From IMG/VR virus record IMGVR_UViG_3300029932_000006: DNA of 33,590 nucleotides, one strand, 5' to 3'. Within the stretch, counting starts at the first letter, position 1. Every line of letters starts with the position of its first letter. The translations under genes were made by a program, and so were the position numbers. The DNA is from a virus. Of the stretch, positions 1 through 33,590 are shown one piece after another. The notes below the pieces were generated by a model, which saw only the letters and a list, made by a program, of their open reading frames with translations, was not told where the DNA came from and made no database searches.

Positions 1-77
1 GCGGCCCACACAGCCCTTGGATAGAGCCTTCCACCGTCTTCATCTCTGCGATAGGACTGGATGTATATCACGCCTGG
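1..77. repeat. Exact 77-bp direct duplication of 33514..33590. This is the overlap of a circular or terminally redundant contig.
   Basis: Bases 1-77 (gcggcccacacagccc...atcacgcctgg) are identical to the last 77 bases of the window. A reverse-strand ORF reads through the join in frame. Confidence 0.9.
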
Positions 78-727: not shown

Positions 728-948
728 AGTTTCTTTCGATGCTTCAATAATTCTTTCTTACCCATCTCGCTCAGTTTGGGGATGCAGACTGGCTTTCCTG
801 CATGGGTGACTGTCTTGCGATCACAGATCAACTTCCTGCGAACGAGTGACCAGTAGGTACACCAACTGCCAGGCCGGTCGTTGAACAACTTAAATCCCCA
901 TCCCTTCTCAAACATCGCGAGCATCTGTGCTTGCTGATGAGAGATCAC
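712..948 (-). CDS. Hypothetical protein (78 aa)
   Basis: Track ORF. The GTG start at 948 overlaps the upstream stop as GTGA. No recognisable motif. Confidence 0.55.
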   Translation of the reverse strand: MISHQQAQMLAMFEKGWGFKLFNDRPGSWCTYWSLVRRKLICDRKTVTHAGKPVCIPKLSEMGKKELLKHRKKLCTAI

Positions 949-1412
949 AGCCGATCCCCCAGCCTGCGACCGATGTTCGCCAGTTGGTCTTTGATCTCAT
1001 TGATGGACTTGCGGCCCATGTTGGGAATCCGCAAAAGCTCCCGCTCCGTTCGGCTGCAGAGATCATCAATGGTGTAGATTTCCTCAAACCTCAGGCAGTT
1101 TGATGCCCTCAGTGGAAGATCAAGGATTTGCCAGGCAGTGGCGTTCTTGGCAATCAGCGATTCAAGAGTTGAGCGTGTTTCGTTTCGCTTCAACTCCTCC
1201 TGCCGGGACTTCTCATCTTCTTGTAATGCTTGCTCCAGGCTTCGATAGTGGCTGATCGCCTGCTGCGCCAGCACTTGAGGTTTCCACGTTCCGTTTGCCT
1301 CTAAGAGTCTCAGATAAATCTCGAAAATCTTGTCGTTCACTTCGATCTCCCGGCCCACTTGGGTTCTTTCTTCTCTTGGAACACGGGCCTCCCCTCGCTT
1401 GGAGGAGTCCAT
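945..1412 (-). CDS. RNA polymerase alpha-subunit C-terminal domain (alpha-CTD)-like protein with a coiled-coil N-terminal half
   Basis: The C-terminal 60 aa are ILDLPLRASNCLRFEEIYTIDDLCSRTERELLRIPNMGRKSINEIKDQLANIGRRLGDRL. These align along their full length with the RpoA alpha-CTD helix-hairpin-helix (E. coli [60 protein letters not shown]). I chose ATG 1412, which has GGAG 9-10 nt upstream. The track's longer ORF to 1550 would overlap the upstream gene. Confidence 0.8.
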   Translation of the reverse strand: MDSSKRGEARVPREERTQVGREIEVNDKIFEIYLRLLEANGTWKPQVLAQQAISHYRSLEQALQEDEKSRQEELKRNETRSTLESLIAKNATAWQILDLPLRASNCLRFEEIYTIDDLCSRTERELLRIPNMGRKSINEIKDQLANIGRRLGDRL

Positions 1413-1500
1413 CCATACTTTCTCCAGGTGGCCTGAACATCGGCCCCCGAGGTCCATTTGAAATCTGGATGCCCCACCGGGATGCGCGGCATCGTCTTTT

Positions 1501-1935
1501 TCACTTGATGTTCCATCTTGCCTCCAACTCTCTAATAAGAGACACCACATCCATTGCCCAGGCTGTTTTCCCAGTCATATACTTGGTGTGCCGAGCCGCG
1601 ATTTGGAGGATCTCCTTTTCCTCCAGCTTTTTCGTTTTCACTGGCTCTGGAATAATCTCCTTGGCAGCGGCCCACACGATTCGGGACCGCCCAGAGGCTC
1701 CGTTCCTCCTTAGCCCTGAATCAAAGATGTACCCCTTCCTCCGCAGAGGAGCGATCCTTGGGGTAATTGACTGCAGAGACCTGTTCAGCGCAAAAGCGAT
1801 CTCTTCTGCTGTCGAAGGCTTGAACCTCAAGAGTTCATACACCCTCGCCTCTAAGTGGCTCACATCTAGCTTTGCGGCTTCCTTAGCGGTGTCAGGGTCA
1901 TCTTTACGGTGTGCTCCGTGCATCATTGGCTCCAT
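1501..1935 (-). CDS. Winged-helix (MarR-like) DNA-binding protein
   Basis: 144 aa. VYELLRFKPSTAEEIAFALNRSLQSITPRIAPLRRKGYIFDSG...GRSRIVW shows an HTH followed by a beta-wing. The start could instead be ATG 1926 or 1923. Confidence 0.7.
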   Translation of the reverse strand: MEPMMHGAHRKDDPDTAKEAAKLDVSHLEARVYELLRFKPSTAEEIAFALNRSLQSITPRIAPLRRKGYIFDSGLRRNGASGRSRIVWAAAKEIIPEPVKTKKLEEKEILQIAARHTKYMTGKTAWAMDVVSLIRELEARWNIK

Positions 1936-4528: not shown

Positions 4529-4664
4529 GTGCGGCGGCATCTTGGACATCGTTGAGCTGACTCGCAATCGCTGGCGCTACAAATGCCTGAGTTGTGGACG
4601 GTATGAAATCATGCCCCCGCACAATCAACGCAGAACACTTGTCAAGCCAAAAGAACCGCGTTAA
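4521..4664 (+). CDS. Small zinc-ribbon protein (47 aa)
   Basis: ATG 4521 has GGAGAA 6 nt upstream. It has paired CxC/CxxC motifs (MCKCGG ... CLSCG). It lies inside the longer spurious track ORF 4227..4664. Confidence 0.5.
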   Translation: MCKCGGILDIVELTRNRWRYKCLSCGRYEIMPPHNQRRTLVKPKEPR

Positions 4665-4695
4665 AGTGCTGCGAAACCCGGCTAGGGAGGAAGTC

Positions 4696-5544
4696 ATGAG
4701 CCTCCCGAAAAGCGTTAGACCCCGCCTGCCGATGGTTTCCTTTAGGGTCTGCAAAAGGGTCGAAATGCGTTACTACCAGTTCCACATCGGGGACTATGCG
4801 TCCCACACACGCCACCTCAACCACACCGAGGATCTGGCCTACCGGCGACTGCTGGACTTCTACTACCTGCACGAACAACCGATAAAGCAGCGCGAAATCG
4901 CAAGGCAGATCGGGATGCGCGATTGCGAGCAGGAGGTACTGTCTGTCCTTGAAGAATTCTTCGTGTCCACGGATGTCGGGTACATCAACCCCCGCGCAGA
5001 CCGCGAGATCGAGGCTTACAAGGCCATGAAGGACGCTGGCAAGCGCGGCGCTGAAAAGAGGTGGGGACAAGACAAATCAACCACTTCTGATGCCCACCCT
5101 ATAGCCACCCCATACCCACCCCATAGCCACCCTAATGACACCCCAATAGCAACCATAAACCATGAACCAGTAACCAGTAATAAAGAAGAAGCTAAAGCTT
5201 CTTTGTCGGGAACCGGGTTCCCGCCCTGTCCACATGGTCAAGTCTTAGAGCTTTGGAAGCAAAGACTCCCGCATCTGTCACAGCCAAGAACCTGGGAAGG
5301 TGCTAGGCAGTCGGCCCTGAAGGGAAGGTGGAATCAGGCTGCAAAAAAATCCACCTGGTCTGACGGGTACTCAACGCAAGAAGAAGGTCTGAAGTGGTGG
5401 GATTCCTTCTTCACATACATCGCAAACGACACTAAGCTTGCTTCAGGCTTTGAGACAAGCGGAAGAGTATGGAGACCAGATCTGCCTTGGATTCTCAACG
5501 CCACGAACTTTGCCAAGATCATTGATGGGAAGTATCAGAAATGA
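4696..5544 (+). CDS. DUF1376 (YdaU-like) phage replication-associated protein
   Basis: MRYYQFHIGDYASHTRHLNHTEDLAYRRLLDFYYLHEQPI is the DUF1376 signature. Start ATG 4696 follows a strong GGGAGG (4685-4690). ATG 4765, directly at the domain start, is an alternative. Confidence 0.8.
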   Translation: MSLPKSVRPRLPMVSFRVCKRVEMRYYQFHIGDYASHTRHLNHTEDLAYRRLLDFYYLHEQPIKQREIARQIGMRDCEQEVLSVLEEFFVSTDVGYINPRADREIEAYKAMKDAGKRGAEKRWGQDKSTTSDAHPIATPYPPHSHPNDTPIATINHEPVTSNKEEAKASLSGTGFPPCPHGQVLELWKQRLPHLSQPRTWEGARQSALKGRWNQAAKKSTWSDGYSTQEEGLKWWDSFFTYIANDTKLASGFETSGRVWRPDLPWILNATNFAKIIDGKYQK

Positions 5545-5849: not shown

Positions 5850-6052
5850 ACTACTTTGAAGCCCACAAACTTCTGAATGAGGTCAAAGATGGAATCAACC
5901 ACCCAACCGAACTCATCACCCATGCCCTATACCTCACAGGAGACCTGGAGGATGGAATGCGAAGCGCGGGAGTGGATTCGGATGTTCAACGACATCAAAG
6001 CCACGAAAGGACTCGAAGCAGCGGCTGGATGGTGGGGCCGAACAATATCTAA
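5846..6052 (+). CDS. Hypothetical protein. The N-terminal ~35 aa look genuine and the 3' end is uncertain.
   Basis: The GTG start at 5846 overlaps the upstream stop as GTGA, with GGAGG 7 nt upstream. The sequence MNYFEAHKLLNEVKDGINHPTELITHALYLTGDL looks protein-like. After ~5950 the frame becomes S/R-rich and overlaps 5952..6131. Confidence 0.5.
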   Translation: MNYFEAHKLLNEVKDGINHPTELITHALYLTGDLEDGMRSAGVDSDVQRHQSHERTRSSGWMVGPNNI

Positions 6053-6131
6053 TATTGAGAAAAGACGAGGCAAAGATTCAGCCGAGAAGTTACGGAGAAA
6101 AATGAATGAGCTTCGTAGTATTCACCGTTGA
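5952..6131 (+). CDS. Hypothetical protein (59 aa) in the +1 frame relative to 5846..6052
   Basis: ATG 5952 has GGAGA upstream. MECEAREWIRMFNDIKATKGLEAAAGWWGRTISNIEKRRGKDSAEKLRRKMNEL looks protein-like. The first 25 codons of track ORF 5877..6131 look out of frame. Confidence 0.5.
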   Translation: MECEAREWIRMFNDIKATKGLEAAAGWWGRTISNIEKRRGKDSAEKLRRKMNELRSIHR

Positions 6132-6525
6132 AGGCCCACCTCAAGGCAAAGGACGGCCCCGGTTCCGAAGGGCTGGAAACTTCGTCACTACCTACACCGA
6201 TCAGAAGACCAAGACCTACGAACAGACCATCAAGGCCTGGGCACAGCGAGCAATAGGCTCAGGAAGCCCCCTAGAAGGGCCTGTATCGGTCGATCTCTAC
6301 ATCAGGATAGGTGTACCTGCATCCACTACAAAGAAGCTCACAGAGGCCTGCATCCGAAACGAGAAGCTGCCCACCAAGAAGCCCGATATAGATAACATAA
6401 TCAAGGCATATTTAGACGCAATGAATGGAATTGTATATATAGACGATACCCAGGTCGTGAGATTATCTGCAAAGAAGGTATATTCTCTTGTGCCTGGTGT
6501 AGATGTTTGCGTGGTGCAAATATGA
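6106..6525 (+). CDS. rusA: RusA-family Holliday junction resolvase
   Basis: 139 aa. It has PPQGKGRPRF near the N-terminus and KKPDIDNIIKAYLDAMNGIVYIDDTQV, the canonical RusA catalytic Asp block. Confidence 0.9.
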   Translation: MSFVVFTVEGPPQGKGRPRFRRAGNFVTTYTDQKTKTYEQTIKAWAQRAIGSGSPLEGPVSVDLYIRIGVPASTTKKLTEACIRNEKLPTKKPDIDNIIKAYLDAMNGIVYIDDTQVVRLSAKKVYSLVPGVDVCVVQI

Positions 6526-6848
6526 ATGCCAATGCTGCGGTAGATTTTATTATTCGCAACGCAGGGGATTACTCCAAAGCCAAAGCGCAAAGGGTTTACT
6601 TAGAAGAATTCAGAAAGACCAAGAAAGCCTTACTGATGAAAGACGCAATGGCGAAATACGAAGCTGCCAATGCTCAAGAGCGAGAGGCTTACGCTCACCC
6701 GGAGTACCAAGAACTCCTCAAAGGCCTGCAGGAGGCCATAGAGATTGAGGAAGAACTGAAGTGGAAGCTGGAGGCCGCAAGGATGAGGGTTGACATCTGG
6801 AGGTCAGAGGAAGCCTCCGCACGAATGCAAGTAAGGGCCACAGAATGA
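6522..6848 (+). CDS. Hypothetical coiled-coil protein (108 aa)
   Basis: ATG 6522 is ATGA-coupled to the rusA stop. The protein is helical and rich in K, E and A. Confidence 0.6.
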   Translation: MNANAAVDFIIRNAGDYSKAKAQRVYLEEFRKTKKALLMKDAMAKYEAANAQEREAYAHPEYQELLKGLQEAIEIEEELKWKLEAARMRVDIWRSEEASARMQVRATE

Positions 6849-7579
6849 TCCACTATCACGGGACTCCAGTAGGAGGAAAGAGAGAAGATTCGGCTAGGTT
6901 TCTTCCAGGAAGACACGCACTTGTGTCTTTTGCTTACCCAGAGGACATCTCAATCGTGGCTGATGTCTGTCAGTCTTTTGTGCTGGATAACGGGGCGTTT
7001 ACCACTTGGAAGCAGGGCAAGCCTTTAGATGTGGATGGGTATATCAAGTGGGTCCACGAGTGGTATCGCCATCCAGGGTTTGATTGGGCACTGATTCCTG
7101 ATGTGATTGACGGGTCAGACCGTGAAAATGACTACTTGGTGGAGAACTGGCCGAAGGCACTTCCTGGGGTTCCTGTGTGGCATATGCACGAGCCAACAGT
7201 AAGACTTACATGGCTGGCGCGTAAGTTCCGCACCGTGGCTTTGGGTTCTTCTGGCGAGTTTGCCTCTGTCGGCACTCAGCAATGGTGGGAGCGTATGGCC
7301 CGAGCCATGAAAGCCATCTGTGACGATCAGGGAAGGCCGATGTGCAAGCTCCACGGACTAAGGATGCTTGACCCCAACATCTTTACAAAACTTCCACTCT
7401 CAAGCGCGGACTCCACGAACGCAGCAGTCAATTCTGGGAGTCTTTCAAGATTCGGGATGTATCTCCCGCCAACGGCAGGCCAAAGGGCCACAGTGATCGC
7501 AGACCGGATCGAGACTTACAACTCAAGTCCAGTCTTCATTCAGCAGCAACAGGAGGAATTGTGCTTATCTTCGCAGTGA
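6845..7579 (+). CDS. dpdA: DpdA-like / tRNA-guanine-transglycosylase-like DNA 7-deazaguanine transglycosylase (putative)
   Basis: 244 aa. FVLDNGAF resembles the TGT catalytic-Asp motif (LTDSGGFQ). There is a later C-x9-C-KLHGL segment. It is ATGA-coupled upstream and overlaps the downstream YhhQ-like transporter gene. The assignment rests on memory of the family plus this context. Confidence 0.6.
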   Translation: MIHYHGTPVGGKREDSARFLPGRHALVSFAYPEDISIVADVCQSFVLDNGAFTTWKQGKPLDVDGYIKWVHEWYRHPGFDWALIPDVIDGSDRENDYLVENWPKALPGVPVWHMHEPTVRLTWLARKFRTVALGSSGEFASVGTQQWWERMARAMKAICDDQGRPMCKLHGLRMLDPNIFTKLPLSSADSTNAAVNSGSLSRFGMYLPPTAGQRATVIADRIETYNSSPVFIQQQQEELCLSSQ

Positions 7580-8064
7580 TCGTTTATGCGCTGGCAATGA
7601 CCATCGCCAACTTATCAATCGCAGAGTTTGGGCCAAAAGTAAGCCCAATCAATGCGTTTTTCCTCATCGGCTTAGACCTGGCATTGCGGGATTGGCTGCA
7701 GGTCAAACTCAAAACCAGAGAAATGGGCCTGTTGATTCTTGCGTCTGGGGGAATTACTTATCTACTAAATCCCTCAGCCGATATGATCGCCATTGCCTCG
7801 GCGATAGCTTTCACGGGGGCAGCGGTGGTGGATTGGGCCGTTTTCACTAAGGTCACCGGCTCGTGGTTCAAACGCGCAAACACATCCAATGTTGCTGGTG
7901 CTGCGGTTGATTCGCTTCTGTTCCCAACCATTGCGTTTGGTTCTCTTATGCCGCACATTGTCCTGATGCAGTTCGTTGCAAAGGTCTGCGGCGGTTATGT
8001 CTGGGCACTCCTTCTGAATCATGTATCAAAAGCAAACTTACATCCGAAGCCCGAAGCTCCTTAA
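7561..8064 (+). CDS. yhhQ: YhhQ / Vut_1-family queuosine-precursor (preQ0/preQ1) transporter
   Basis: 167 aa and polytopic. AAVVDWAVFTKV...RANTSNVAGAAVDSLLFPTIAF parallels E. coli YhhQ LDVHVFNRL...APTASTLFGNVSDTLAFFFIAF. The GTG start follows AGGAGGAA (7551-7558). Confidence 0.75.
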   Translation: MLIFAVIVYALAMTIANLSIAEFGPKVSPINAFFLIGLDLALRDWLQVKLKTREMGLLILASGGITYLLNPSADMIAIASAIAFTGAAVVDWAVFTKVTGSWFKRANTSNVAGAAVDSLLFPTIAFGSLMPHIVLMQFVAKVCGGYVWALLLNHVSKANLHPKPEAP

Positions 8065-8341
8065 AGCCGTTGCGGGGCTGCAGTGTCAATGCTGTGGGCA
8101 TGAGAACTCCCAAGCCGCACACTCGAACTGGTCAGGCGGGAAGGGTAAGGGGATCAAGGCTTGCGACACCCACATCGCTGCCTTATGCCTCAAGTGCCAC
8201 TGGGAGATCGACCAAGGGAATAAGTTGACAAAAGACGAGCGAAAGCAGAAGTGGCTCGCCGCTCATAAGCGGACGGTACAGGAGCTTCAGAAGCAGGGAA
8301 AATGGCCTATTGACATTCCAGTTCCCGATATAGAATTCTGA
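8021..8341 (+). CDS. DUF1364 (YbcO-like) putative nuclease
   Basis: 106 aa. RSPKLLKAVAGLQCQCCG...AHSNWSGGKGKGIKACDTHIAALCLKCHWEID matches my recollection of the DUF1364/YbcO prophage family. It overlaps the yhhQ-like 3' end by 44 nt. Confidence 0.65.
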   Translation: MYQKQTYIRSPKLLKAVAGLQCQCCGHENSQAAHSNWSGGKGKGIKACDTHIAALCLKCHWEIDQGNKLTKDERKQKWLAAHKRTVQELQKQGKWPIDIPVPDIEF

Positions 8342-8365
8342 TACCCACATCGCAGTTGTCGGGTT

Positions 8366-8388
8366 GGGGCTTCGGCCCCTCTTTTTTG
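8366..8388 (+). terminator. Rho-independent terminator
   Basis: A GGGGC-TTCG-GCCCC hairpin is followed by TCTTTTTT, 25 nt after the DUF1364 stop. Confidence 0.65.
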
Positions 8389-8396
8389 GAGCACTC

Positions 8397-8552
8397 ATGT
8401 TCACCAAAGCCAAAGCCAAAGAGATGCAGGAGTATCTCAACCGCAACAAGCGCAAGTACCACGAGACCAAGCCAATGAAGGCTTACAAGATGGCCGATGA
8501 GTTTGGTAAGGGGTACGAGGCCATCGAGATGCAGAAGGTCAAGAAGAAATGA
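8397..8552 (+). CDS. Hypothetical small lysine-rich protein (51 aa)
   Basis: The internal ATG at 8397 has GGAG 5 nt upstream. It sits just after the terminator and is ATGA-coupled to the next gene. Confidence 0.5.
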   Translation: MFTKAKAKEMQEYLNRNKRKYHETKPMKAYKMADEFGKGYEAIEMQKVKKK

Positions 8553-9028
8553 AGTGCCCCATCGCCACCCAGGACATCGAGGTCAACCTTGAGAACCGCG
8601 ATCACGCATTCAAGGAGTACGGCTACGGGCCTGCAAATCCCGAGCTGGACAACGAGGAGTTCTGGGCAGAGCGAGCGGTAGAGTGGAACACTTCTCCTGA
8701 CAATGCAAAGACAATGCGTTGCGGGAACTGCGCTGCGTTCATTCAAACGCCTGAGATGATGGGCTGCATCATTGGCGGGATTCAGAAAGAGGAATCCGAT
8801 GATGAGACCTACGCTCCCGAGGTTGTAGAGGCAGCGAATCTGGGTTACTGTGAGCTGTTTGAATTCAAGTGCGCCGCAGACCGGACCTGCAGTGCATGGC
8901 TGACGGGTGGCCCGATCACGAAGATGACTGACAAGCGCAAGCAGATGCTTGCAATCGCTAAATACGAGGCCAGAAAGGGCGAGTATGAAGACGAAAGCGG
9001 AGAAGAAGATCTCAAAGGTGATGACTGA
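8549..9028 (+). CDS. Cys-rich protein with a HiPIP-like Cys spacing and an acidic C-terminal tail
   Basis: 159 aa. CGNCAAF ... GYCELFEFKCAADRTCSAW compares with HiPIP C-x2-C ... C-x12/13-C-[AS]-W. Confidence 0.6.
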   Translation: MKCPIATQDIEVNLENRDHAFKEYGYGPANPELDNEEFWAERAVEWNTSPDNAKTMRCGNCAAFIQTPEMMGCIIGGIQKEESDDETYAPEVVEAANLGYCELFEFKCAADRTCSAWLTGGPITKMTDKRKQMLAIAKYEARKGEYEDESGEEDLKGDD

Positions 9029-9588: not shown

Positions 9589-10845
9589 TTGAAACCTCAA
9601 ATCGAAACGCTGGACATTAACTCGCTCATCCCATACGCGAGGAACGCCAGAACACACTCAGAAGCCCAGATCGCCCAGATCGCGGGTTCCATCAAGGAAT
9701 TCGGCTTCACCAATCCCGTCCTGATCGACAAGGACAACGGGATCATCGCTGGTCATGGCCGAGTAGCTGCAGCGAGAAAGCTAAACCTTACAGAAGTACC
9801 CTGCATCCGTCTAGAGCATCTCTCAGAGACTCAGCGCAAGGCTTACATCCTGGCAGACAACAGGATAGCTCTTAACTCCGGGTGGGAGGCCGACCTCTTA
9901 TCCACAGAGCTTGAGGAGCTGAAAGACTTAGGGGTCAGCCTCGAGAGCCTGGGTTTTGACTCAGACGAGATTGACGCGCTCCTGAACAAGATCGAACCCA
10001 CCGCGGGACTTACGGACGAGGACGAAGCCCCAGAGGTTCAAGAGCAGGCTGTTACTAAGCCTGGGGATATTTGGGTGATGGGCAACCATCGGCTTATGTG
10101 CGGGGACTCCACAAGCATTGACGCTGTGGATAAGCTGATGCCAGAGACCGCGGATATGGCGTTTACTGATCCGCCTTACCTGATGGACTTTACCGGAGGG
10201 ATTCATGCGGATGGATCAAAGTCCTTTAACGCCAAGCATGGGCGCATTGCTAACGACAAAATGAGCGAGCAGGAAGGAGACGACTTTCTAGACGCCATCA
10301 ATACGATCATTGCCTCTAAAGTTCGCGGTGCTTTTTACATAACCTTTTATCGACTAGGAATTGATCGGTACTACGCATCAATGCAACGGACGGGTCTTCA
10401 GTGCCGGTCGCTGATTATTTGGGATAAAGGAAACCACACCCTAAGCAATAGCGACTACATGAGCATGTATGAGCCAATGTTTTATGGCTGGGTAAAGGAT
10501 CACACCTTTTATGGCGGAAACAATGGCATGGACATTTGGCGCATTGAACGAACAAAAAAGAACGATTTGCATCCCACCATGAAGCCGGTGGCCTTAGTAG
10601 AAAAGGCGCTTACTGATGGAAGTAAAGCAAAAGAGGTGGTCCTTGATCTTTTTGGAGGATCAGGGTCAACCCTAATCGCTGCAGAGAAGAACGGACGAGT
10701 AAGCCGCCTGATGGAGCTAGACCCAAAGTATTGCGATGTGATCGTAAAGAGATGGCAGCAGTTCACCGGCAAGAAAGCCATACTGGAGCAAACGGGCCAA
10801 ACTTACGAAGAACTTACACAACCTTCGGGATTACAAAATGAGTAA
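9589..10845 (+). CDS. ParB-like nuclease domain fused to an N6/N4 DNA methyltransferase (beta-class)
   Basis: 418 aa with a TTG start after AAGGAA. The N-terminus has a ParB/Srx block (PYARNARTH...FGFTNPVLID...IIAGHGRVAAARKL). DPPY (motif IV) precedes FGGSGST (motif I). Confidence 0.9.
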   Translation: MKPQIETLDINSLIPYARNARTHSEAQIAQIAGSIKEFGFTNPVLIDKDNGIIAGHGRVAAARKLNLTEVPCIRLEHLSETQRKAYILADNRIALNSGWEADLLSTELEELKDLGVSLESLGFDSDEIDALLNKIEPTAGLTDEDEAPEVQEQAVTKPGDIWVMGNHRLMCGDSTSIDAVDKLMPETADMAFTDPPYLMDFTGGIHADGSKSFNAKHGRIANDKMSEQEGDDFLDAINTIIASKVRGAFYITFYRLGIDRYYASMQRTGLQCRSLIIWDKGNHTLSNSDYMSMYEPMFYGWVKDHTFYGGNNGMDIWRIERTKKNDLHPTMKPVALVEKALTDGSKAKEVVLDLFGGSGSTLIAAEKNGRVSRLMELDPKYCDVIVKRWQQFTGKKAILEQTGQTYEELTQPSGLQNE

Positions 10846-29840: not shown

Positions 29841-30086
29841 ATGAAGATTTACCAACTCTACGGCATCGACACTGCAATGCACCTGCTGCGCCCTGGCGCG
29901 AAGTGGGAGATCAGCAACACAATGATTACTCGGTGGGAAGATCCTCGGCCATGCCCTACATGGGAGGAGCTGATGGAAACGATGGAGAAGATCAAGTCTT
30001 TTGAGGACTCCATCAATACCATCTTTACTGAGGATCAGATCGAGAAGATCACCGGCTTGCAGAAGCAGATTGAGGAAGTTGCATGA
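29841..30086 (+). CDS. Hypothetical protein (81 aa), XkdW-like pattern
   Basis: Track ORF. LLRPGAKWEISN...WEDPRPCPTWEEL resembles the XkdW-type small phage proteins, from memory. Confidence 0.55.
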   Translation: MKIYQLYGIDTAMHLLRPGAKWEISNTMITRWEDPRPCPTWEELMETMEKIKSFEDSINTIFTEDQIEKITGLQKQIEEVA

Positions 30087-30685
30087 ATATGCACCACCTC
30101 TTTCCTGTCCCGATTGGAATGTTCGACTTAGGCAGGTCGCTGTCTGAGGAAGAGCATTCCTTTATCTTGGGCCAAGACACCCGTCCTAATCAGGGGAACA
30201 CCACCAGTGCAAACCATTTTGTTTTGCGCGATCAGGTGATGACTCCCCTGCGTGGATGGGTGGAGGACTGTGTTGCTGAATACTTCAAAGCCACGACCAA
30301 CCCGAAACATGATGTGAACTTGCGGGTGACGCAATCATGGTTTAACTACTCCAAGCAAGGACAGTTTCACCATAAGCACGCTCACCCAAACTCTTTTATT
30401 TCTGGCGTGTTCTACGCTCAAACCAATCCAAACGACAGGATATATTTCCATCGCTCGGGCTGGCAACAGATCAAGTTTCCTCCTGATAGTTGGAACCTGT
30501 ATAACTCTGAATCTTGGTGGTTTGAGGCTACTGCTGGAAGGCTGATTCTTTTCCCTTCTTCGCTTGAGCACAATGTTCCACCTGTAGAGGGTGAAAACAC
30601 AAGAATCTCGATGTCGTTCAACACCTTCCCTGTGGGGTATGTTGGCGATGAAATGGAACTTACTGGATTGAAACTGGAGGCTTAA
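30083..30685 (+). CDS. 2OG-Fe(II) oxygenase family protein (PF13759-like)
   Basis: 200 aa. It has HKHAHPNSFISGVFYAQ and GRLILFPSSLEHNVPPVEGENTRISMSFN, the H-x-H...H facial triad region of the phage/cyanobacterial 2OG-FeII_Oxy_5 group. Confidence 0.75.
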   Translation: MNMHHLFPVPIGMFDLGRSLSEEEHSFILGQDTRPNQGNTTSANHFVLRDQVMTPLRGWVEDCVAEYFKATTNPKHDVNLRVTQSWFNYSKQGQFHHKHAHPNSFISGVFYAQTNPNDRIYFHRSGWQQIKFPPDSWNLYNSESWWFEATAGRLILFPSSLEHNVPPVEGENTRISMSFNTFPVGYVGDEMELTGLKLEA

Positions 30686-33361: not shown

Positions 33362-33590
33362 TGAAGGTCTTACTTAGGTTGAGTTTGGCCTGATTGTTTT
33401 CGTGCTTGAGATGAAGATGGAAGATTGAGGCGACTTTCTTCTTCTTACGCGCTCTGCGGTTGTATTCCGGGTGTCCTAACTTTGGAGGCCTTTTAGCGTC
33501 TGGCAGGTTCCCAGCGGCCCACACAGCCCTTGGATAGAGCCTTCCACCGTCTTCATCTCTGCGATAGGACTGGATGTATATCACGCCTGG
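33318..33590 (-). CDS. Winged-helix protein, 3' part of the junction-spanning CDS (see 1..218)
   Basis: Track ORF 33318..33584 is the in-window tail (IYIQSYRRDEDGGRLYPRAVWAAG...). It is in the same frame as 1..218 after the 77-bp duplicate is collapsed. Confidence 0.6.
   Translation of the reverse strand, partial: PGVIYIQSYRRDEDGGRLYPRAVWAAGNLPDAKRPPKLGHPEYNRRARKKKKVASIFHLHLKHENNQAKLNLSKTFNASAVHMGQRQGTV
33514..33590. repeat. Second copy of the 77-bp terminal duplication
   Basis: Identical to 1..77. Confidence 0.9.

Follow-up and report, generated by a model that had tools for sequence, protein, structure and literature searches.

Phage CAjan (Queuovirinae) carries the genes dpdA, folE, queD, queE, queC, and yhhQ, makes its own preQ0, and has 32% of its G replaced; deletion of dpdA abolishes dPreQ0 in CAjan DNA, and yhhQ is dispensable (PMC6884629, PMC7544227). 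Phages that are self-sufficient in this way constitute groups 1 and 2 of Hutinet 2019 (DpdA with FolE, QueD, QueE, and QueC, with or without an amidotransferase), and a further group comprises 76 DpdA-only phages, the modification status of which was considered 'difficult to predict' (PMC6884629). The same study already proposed reliance on host preQ0 or uptake of exogenous precursors and tabulated an adjacent YhhQ for the DpdA-only phages CDKM15, eHP-6, and phiLM21 (Supplementary Data 1); it reported 'no correlation' of YhhQ with any phage group and described no conserved cassette (Hutinet 2019, PMC6884629). In bacteria, YhhQ accompanies ~9% of the dpd islands (PMC11888242). The present analysis concerns a stretch of viral DNA of 33,590 nucleotides (IMG/VR record IMGVR_UViG_3300029932_000006), referred to in its entirety as the window, and in particular two overlapping open reading frames, ORF1 and ORF2, which encode a short DpdA-like protein and a short protein of the VUT (vitamin uptake transporter)/YhhQ family. 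Judged from sequence comparisons, this pair probably represents a salvage-type 7-deazaguanine DNA-modification cassette, a reading to which a probability of roughly 0.6 can be given. The features concerned are the following:

6845..7579, plus strand: ORF1, 244 aa, ATG start, short 'singleton'-type phage DpdA-like protein
7561..8064, plus strand: ORF2, 167 aa, GTG start, short VUT/YhhQ-family protein
7551..7579, plus strand: coupling junction, with AGGAGGAA at 7551-7558, the GTG at 7561, and the ORF1 stop codon at 7577-7579

A preliminary description of the window, made from the letters alone, had given the same coordinates, lengths, and 19-nt overlap, and the strings it quoted (FVLDNGAF, KLHGL, VDWAVF, and NVAGAAVDSLLFPTIAF) were all retrieved; its C-x9-C spacing before KLHGL has to be corrected to C159-x7-C167. 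Its view of the first gene as DpdA-like was borne out, as sequence similarity supports the assignment of ORF1 to the DpdA family. Indeed, ORF1 matched phrog_887 of the PHROGs database ('queuine tRNA-ribosyltransferase'; E 7.3e-67) and, in BLASTP, the DpdA of CAjan (26% identity over 190 aa, E 6e-12), although the latter is a protein of 306 aa encoded ~2.3 kb away from a likewise short, 159-aa YhhQ. It was 36% identical to the 234-aa DpdA of Salmonella phage 7-11 (E 2e-32) and 38-47% identical to the proteins of phages SPN3UB, BTP1, SfI, and PEAT2. The DpdAs of these five phages are short as well (~234-262 aa), and their genomes, like the window, lack genes for preQ0 or G+ synthesis. Since all five are DpdA-only phages (Hutinet 2019), ORF1 falls within the gamma-proteobacterial 'singleton DpdA' cluster. 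The closest GenBank relative was found in Pseudomonas phage Epa33 (68% identity). Unlike the window, phages 7-11, SPN3UB, BTP1, SfI, and Epa33 possess no transporter gene; PEAT2 does, its short VUT gene adjoining that for DpdA, but in the reverse order.

Ten residues of ORF1 (D48, G50, A51, F52, G90, H113, G134, H170, D189, and S190) were invariant in 81 distinct relatives, including CAjan DpdA, and the D-x-G-x-F (D48-N-G-A-F52) and (A/C)DS (A-D189-S) motifs were kept in all 81. In the alignment with CAjan DpdA, LDNGAF corresponded to LDSGAF, KLHGL to KLHAF, and SADSTN to SCDSSS; L169 was invariant only among the closer homologues. As far as order and spacing are concerned, and not superposition, D48/F52, H113, G134-G137, L169, and D189 match D95/F99, H181, G206/207, L236, and D256 of the bacterial DpdA of S. 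Montevideo (bDpdA; PDB 7UI4), a series of Asp and Phe, His, Gly-Gly, Leu, and Asp that is also that of the tRNA-guanine transglycosylases (TGTs). In bDpdA, D95 serves in general acid/base catalysis, and D256 acts as the nucleophile (PMC10164549). The candidate base-recognition residues of ORF1 (D86/D89, H113, G134-S-S-G137, and L169/H170) were conserved and located at predicted beta-strand ends, D86 being replaced by Ser in CAjan, where D89 aligns. For the base-recognition residues of bDpdA (D130, H181/G182, G206/G207, and L236), no direct alignment with ORF1 was obtained.

An AlphaFold2 model of ORF1 (pLDDT 79, pTM 0.79) displayed an alternating beta/alpha barrel with the conserved residues at the strand ends. 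ORF1 has four Cys (42, 159, 167, and 240), no CxCxxC...H motif, and only ~55 residues after D189, and hence no Zn subdomain. Going by this model, ORF1 is a minimal, barrel-only DpdA, consisting of a TIM-barrel core with neither Zn nor insertion domain; it differs in this from bDpdA, ~30% of which is a large Ins8/Zn subdomain and which has DpdB as an ATPase partner, a partner that ORF1 lacks. C159-x7-C167 was considered as a Zn site and rejected, because the second Cys is not kept in CAjan, PEAT2, and others. The structural comparison suggested in the preliminary description had a mixed outcome. On the one hand, a Foldseek search of BFVD with the ORF1 model retrieved phage 'queuine tRNA-ribosyltransferase' models, which carry a DpdA annotation (E 1e-11 to 1e-6). 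On the other hand, TGT chains were found among PDB structures at E 2e-3 to 1e-2 and a TM score of ~0.48 only, no better than TIM barrels such as TrpA; the PDB match to TGT, being indistinguishable from generic TIM barrels, was rejected as decisive evidence.

This last result weighs against ORF1 as a TGT-type enzyme, and so do several sequence searches. No match of ORF1 was found in Pfam (none at E<=1) or in NCBIfam, which renders the link to TGTs indirect. A PDB sequence search yielded no meaningful match with ORF1, with a 44-sequence profile, or with a diverse 11-sequence profile, and hhalign of the DpdA-like profile against E. coli Tgt gave no alignment, a single-sequence template being too weak for this purpose. 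CAjan DpdA likewise had no PDB sequence match, and Pfam returned nothing, PF01702 included, for 11 diverse ORF1 relatives, among which was the validated CAjan DpdA. Thus, the absence of PF01702 is uninformative for phage DpdAs and does not disqualify ORF1, which is predicted, from its homology and conserved residues, to exchange DNA guanine for a 7-deazaguanine base.

Concerning the second gene, ORF2 scored above the gathering threshold of Pfam Vut_1 (PF02592; E 1.5e-9, 38.8 bits versus a gathering score of 27.2, residues 75-143), in agreement with its earlier designation as YhhQ-like, for which this very check had been proposed. It also matched phrog_4899 (E 4e-35), its family profile aligned with E. 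coli YhhQ in hhalign (E 1.8e-4, 138 columns, YhhQ residues 16-192), and it was 25% identical to the 159-aa 'preQ0 transporter' of CAjan. A Kyte-Doolittle scan indicated a polytopic protein with approximately six hydrophobic segments, and the homologue in phage mEp021 is annotated with six transmembrane segments. Homologues numbered 4153 at E<=1e-5; all of the 120 listed were 156-174 aa long and contained PF02592. These matches establish ORF2 as a VUT/YhhQ-family inner-membrane protein at the level of the family, which does not extend to the exact substrate. ORF2 shares its Pfam family with E. coli YhhQ, an importer of preQ0/preQ1, but is ~55 residues shorter (167 versus 221 aa) and virus-encoded. 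Import of a 7-deazaguanine precursor, preQ0 or preQ1, is predicted for ORF2 on these grounds. Two points count against so specific a role. First, ORF2 remained far under the NCBIfam equivalog cut-offs (18.7 versus 252 bits for NF008406 and 15.6 versus 50.95 bits for TIGR00697). Second, other members of the VUT family move other queuosine-related bases, as is the case for Chlamydia YhhQ and queuine.

Cellular relatives of ORF2 provide a further indication of its function. Chromosomal homologues of the same length and 60-68% identity occur in Burkholderiales, some of them paired with queC. By tblastn, queC was found to be followed immediately by a short VUT gene in 10 of 80 bacterial loci, nine of these VUTs being 65-68% identical to ORF2 and one 46%. 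The presence of VUT directly after queC in cells links the ORF2 subfamily with preQ0 metabolism by a route that does not involve phages. The contigs with such queC-VUT pairs (L105-L112, L117, L118, and L150, the last being the 46% case) were metagenome-assembled genomes (MAGs) of Rubrivivax-like and other Burkholderiales, with VUTs of ~155-165 aa. A cellular queC-yhhQ pair lineage is likely to have been the source of the phage transporter, as far as these similarities tell, and the queC-linked Burkholderiales homologues hint at a betaproteobacterial host lineage for the window phage. Of the 80 genome loci with ORF2 relatives, 73 were cellular and had a neighbourhood devoid of DpdA-like genes, and the idea that the short VUT form is phage-specific was consequently rejected. 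In the one Burkholderiales MAG contig inspected, the ORF2 relative stood in an ordinary chromosomal context, adjoining proA.

Among viruses, the two genes form a unit. The putative Shine-Dalgarno sequence of the transporter gene, AGGAGGAA, lies inside the 3' end of ORF1, where the preliminary description had located it, 2 nt before the GTG of ORF2 and 4 nt from the end of GGAGG. An overlap of the DpdA stop with the VUT start was kept in 95 of 99 related pairs, being most often 4 nt. At least 529 ORF2 relatives were present in IMG/VR contigs, and viral linkage was counted in 90 examined contigs with an ORF2 relative (ORF2 identity 63-98%). A DpdA-like gene lay directly upstream on the same strand in all 24 close loci and in 90/90 overall, with DpdA identity falling to 35%. 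The flanks of these 90 loci varied, the 113-aa ORF that precedes ORF1 in the window being present in 41 and an HNH gene in 27. Conversely, the best 80 DpdA-like viral loci comprised 20 with a VUT gene and 54 clearly without one, and in Epa33 a C5-methylase takes the place of VUT next to the DpdA-like gene. As VUT always occurs with DpdA and DpdA only sometimes with VUT, the phage VUT depends on DpdA and not the reverse; a transporter present only as an accessory to DpdA is what a precursor-supply role predicts. These sequence data support ORF1 and ORF2 being a translationally coupled unit and a conserved cassette. An exception was encountered at greater divergence, namely in the mEp021-group lambdoid phages (L031 5956..7223), the VUT homologue of which is 31% identical and has no DpdA-like neighbour. 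It is followed by a gene annotated as DNA cytosine methyltransferase, which was considered as a cryptic DpdA and rejected, as no match was found. An integrase gene occurs near some related pairs, directly downstream in contig L181 and ~3 kb downstream in contig L179.

Isolated phages, at least four of them, carry the pair as well. In Acinetobacter phage AB3P2, its order is that of the window, DpdA followed by VUT, and the opposite order occurs in Pectobacterium phage PEAT2, Flyfo siphovirus Tbat1_6, and E. coli Rogunavirinae phage Opt-719. In RefSeq, the PEAT2 pair (gp18/gp19) is labelled 'VUT family protein' and 'queuine tRNA-ribosyltransferase', and Supplementary Data 1 of Hutinet 2019 lists this phage without its VUT (PMC6884629). 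The 'hypothetical protein' genes beside the annotated VUT genes of Opt-719 (gp67; L030 6543..7286, hidden Markov model E 2e-56) and Tbat1_6 (gp34; L029 6492..7232, E 2e-61) turned out to be DpdA-like, indicating that the cassette is under-annotated in public records. Clostridium phage CDKM15, halophage eHP-6, and Sinorhizobium phage phiLM21 resemble the window, by tabulated gene content only, in having the same two genes (consecutive accessions) and no FolE, QueD, QueE, or QueC. The arrangement, which the preliminary description held to be unusual, is therefore common, with these isolates, the IMG/VR relatives, the consistent pairing in the examined contigs, and the DpdA- and YhhQ-carrying phages tabulated in Hutinet 2019; the idea put forward in that description is correct in kind and was already in the literature. 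What goes beyond the literature found is the strict one-sided linkage of VUT to DpdA, the conserved translational coupling, the prevalence (at least 529 relatives), and the queC-linked cellular homologues.

Genes for precursor synthesis were searched for in the whole window. A Pfam scan of its 97 ORFs of >=85 aa, on both strands, returned 31 families, of which six without displayed names all had E >9.5e-4, and contained no QueC, QueD/PTPS, radical-SAM/QueE, GTP cyclohydrolase I, or QueF. Similarly, tblastn with FolE, QueD, QueC, and QueE of CAjan gave no match in the window, and none of the 90 viral loci contained CAjan-type FolE, QueD, QueC, or QueE. An exact direct repeat of 77 bases occupies the two ends of the window (1..77 and 33514..33590), which indicates that the window is a complete genome, either as a circular assembly or with a short terminal redundancy. 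The earlier statement that a closed genome lacks folE, queD, queE, and queC thus holds. With no precursor synthesis of its own, the phage would depend on the host preQ0 pool and on import, and on gene content it belongs to the DpdA-only group 3 and not to the self-sufficient groups 1 and 2.

The homologies, the conserved catalytic residues, the strict linkage, and the absent synthesis genes suggest the following course of events with respect to substrate, DNA target, extent of modification, and protection. Early in infection, coupled translation would yield both proteins. ORF2, as a small permease of the VUT/YhhQ type with six segments, would enter the host inner membrane, and the cell would take up more of a free 7-deazaguanine base. 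This base would most likely be preQ0 or preQ1, present in the medium or leaked by the host. ORF1, with D189 as the putative nucleophile and D48 as the putative general acid/base, would then swap guanine in double-stranded phage DNA for this base after replication. It would do so without a DpdB-type partner; indeed, DpdA of phage 9g alone puts preQ0 into plasmid DNA in E. coli (PMC6884629), showing that a phage DpdA works without a partner. The modified phage DNA may finally be partly protected from restriction.

Three published results weigh against this course of events. Phage 7-11, the only member of the short DpdA subfamily with analysed virion DNA, contains 50 dADG per 10^6 nt (~0.02% of G), and none is present in Mycobacterium phage Orion, which is DpdA-only (PMC6884629). 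Furthermore, deletion of yhhQ in CAjan left modification unchanged, the synthesis genes being present (PMC7544227). For these reasons, the claim of the preliminary description that the phage hyper-modifies its DNA is unsupported. The low dADG content of phage 7-11 also lends weight to another explanation, which is possible but on balance unlikely, namely that the cassette is active but produces trace, sequence-specific modification, or none in most conditions. It would then act conditionally or as an epigenetic mark at a low level, and not as a protective hypermodification. A shift in substrate, for instance to ADG, CDG, or another base, may also have taken place in the short singleton DpdAs. 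Besides the dADG of phage 7-11, which contains no dPreQ0, this explanation is in line with the flagging of singleton clusters as possibly functionally diverged (Hutinet 2019, PMC6884629) and with the ~12-fold lower incorporation from host preQ0 alone in CAjan folE and queC mutants (PMC7544227); the window moreover encodes a ParB-N6 methylase of its own for protection. However, phage 7-11 has no transporter and is not a fair proxy, and the coupling of an importer to DpdA in 95 of 99 pairs argues that precursor supply limits a selected function, as expected for a salvage-type cassette.

A bolder form of the salvage-type cassette, which must be regarded as quite doubtful, would be an autonomous, environment-dependent hypermodification system, in which the phage importer, and not host biosynthesis, sets the level and possibly the identity of the inserted base. 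Candidates for this base would be preQ1, queuine, or a 7-deazaguanine that the host does not make. If this were true, the same phage would bear heavy modification where precursor is abundant and none in other habitats, a nutrient-gated anti-restriction trait that would be carried by about one quarter of the closest DpdA relatives (20 of the 80 best-matching viral metagenome loci).

It is highly unlikely that the target is RNA or host physiology instead of phage DNA, with ORF1 exchanging a tRNA base, or with the importer, as a moron or auxiliary metabolic gene, boosting queuosine salvage by the host and thereby tuning translation while the phage infects or persists as a lysogen. PHROG does place both DpdA families under 'moron, auxiliary metabolic gene' with the name tRNA-ribosyltransferase, related cassettes stand beside integrases in temperate-looking contigs, and an increase of Q in tRNA has been suggested as a possible role of the preQ0 pathway in phages devoid of DpdA (Hutinet 2019, PMC6884629). 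However, ORF1 lacks the C-terminal Zn/RNA-binding subdomain of TGTs, every experimentally tested DpdA relative acts on DNA (PMC6884629, PMC7544227, PMC10164549), and stand-alone salvage is contradicted by VUT never occurring without DpdA in the 90 viral loci. That the adjacency merely reflects shared ancestry or phage operon packing, with ORF2 moving an unrelated vitamin-like compound, is barely credible: the neighbouring genes overlap too (6507/6845 by 4 nt and 8021/8064 by 44 nt), so that overlap alone is not specific, and the family is named after vitamin uptake and matched by the C-terminal half of ORF2 only, but it is only the flanking genes that differ between loci, phages of unrelated types share the pair with either gene coming first, and cellular ORF2 homologues pair with queC.

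If active, the salvage-type cassette, with two genes of ~1.2 kb in total and no ATPase partner, would be the most compact genetic unit known to modify DNA with 7-deazaguanines. It would mean that phages can outsource precursor synthesis wholly, keeping import and insertion, and would make an attractive minimal tool for in vivo DNA modification. The finding bears on the question of modification in the 76 DpdA-only phages raised in Hutinet 2019, as the linkage and the queC-linked homologues give a concrete hypothesis that is approachable with the existing isolates PEAT2, AB3P2, and Opt-719.

As to the genomic context, the complete phage genome measures ~33.5 kb and has a G+C content of 53.5%. 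It represents a virus different from the singleton-DpdA phages, with SU10-like structural genes; a megablast of window positions 6000-9000 against GenBank phages gave no nucleotide match. The DpdA-VUT pair sits at the end of an early, lambdoid-style 'nin-like' operon in the rightward arm, the other features of which are:

4594..5544, rightward arm: DUF1376/replication-O-like protein
6106..6525, rightward arm: RusA
6507..6848, plus strand: 113-aa upstream ORF with no assigned function, overlapping the ORF1 start by 4 nt (ATGA) and part of the same operon
8021..8341, plus strand: HNH endonuclease-like ORF of 106 aa (phrog_131, E 3e-27), overlapping the ORF2 end by 44 nt and being the last gene of the operon
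8366..8389, plus strand: terminator-like hairpin GGGGCTTCGGCCCC followed by TCTTTTTTGG, from a consensus scan (pattern match only)

The 113-aa ORF had no PHROG match. The hairpin at 8366-8389 likely ends the rightward early operon that holds the pair. Beyond it, genes were found for a ParB-N6 DNA methylase, terminase, an SU10-type portal, capsid and adaptor, tail proteins, a 2OG-Fe(II) oxygenase, and lysozyme. Genes of the leftward early arm code for Erf, an exonuclease, a MazG-like protein, and a product that bears an RNA-polymerase alpha-CTD domain. No integrase Pfam family was present in the scan of all window ORFs.

Some of these genes deserve mention in their own right. In the product of the ORF at 9589..10845 (plus strand), which matched phrog_498 (E 3e-138) and Pfam N6_N4_Mtase and ParB_N, an N6/N4 DNA methyltransferase is joined to a ParB N-terminal domain. 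The phage thus possesses, 1.5 kb downstream of the pair, another gene for DNA modification that is independent of the first. The ATPase DpdB, with which bDpdA works, is likewise ParB-like (PMC10164549). In the leftward early operon, a 201-aa ORF (945..1550, minus strand) had no PHROG match and ends in a C-terminal domain of the RNA polymerase alpha subunit (PF03118, E 5e-18, residues 142-191). Such a putative phage mimic of the alpha-CTD might divert host transcription factors or UP-element binding, or titrate them. Lastly, a 200-aa 2OG-Fe(II) oxygenase (PF13759, E 3e-22) is encoded at 30083..30685 (plus strand), between the gene for a glycine-rich tail protein and the lysis genes.

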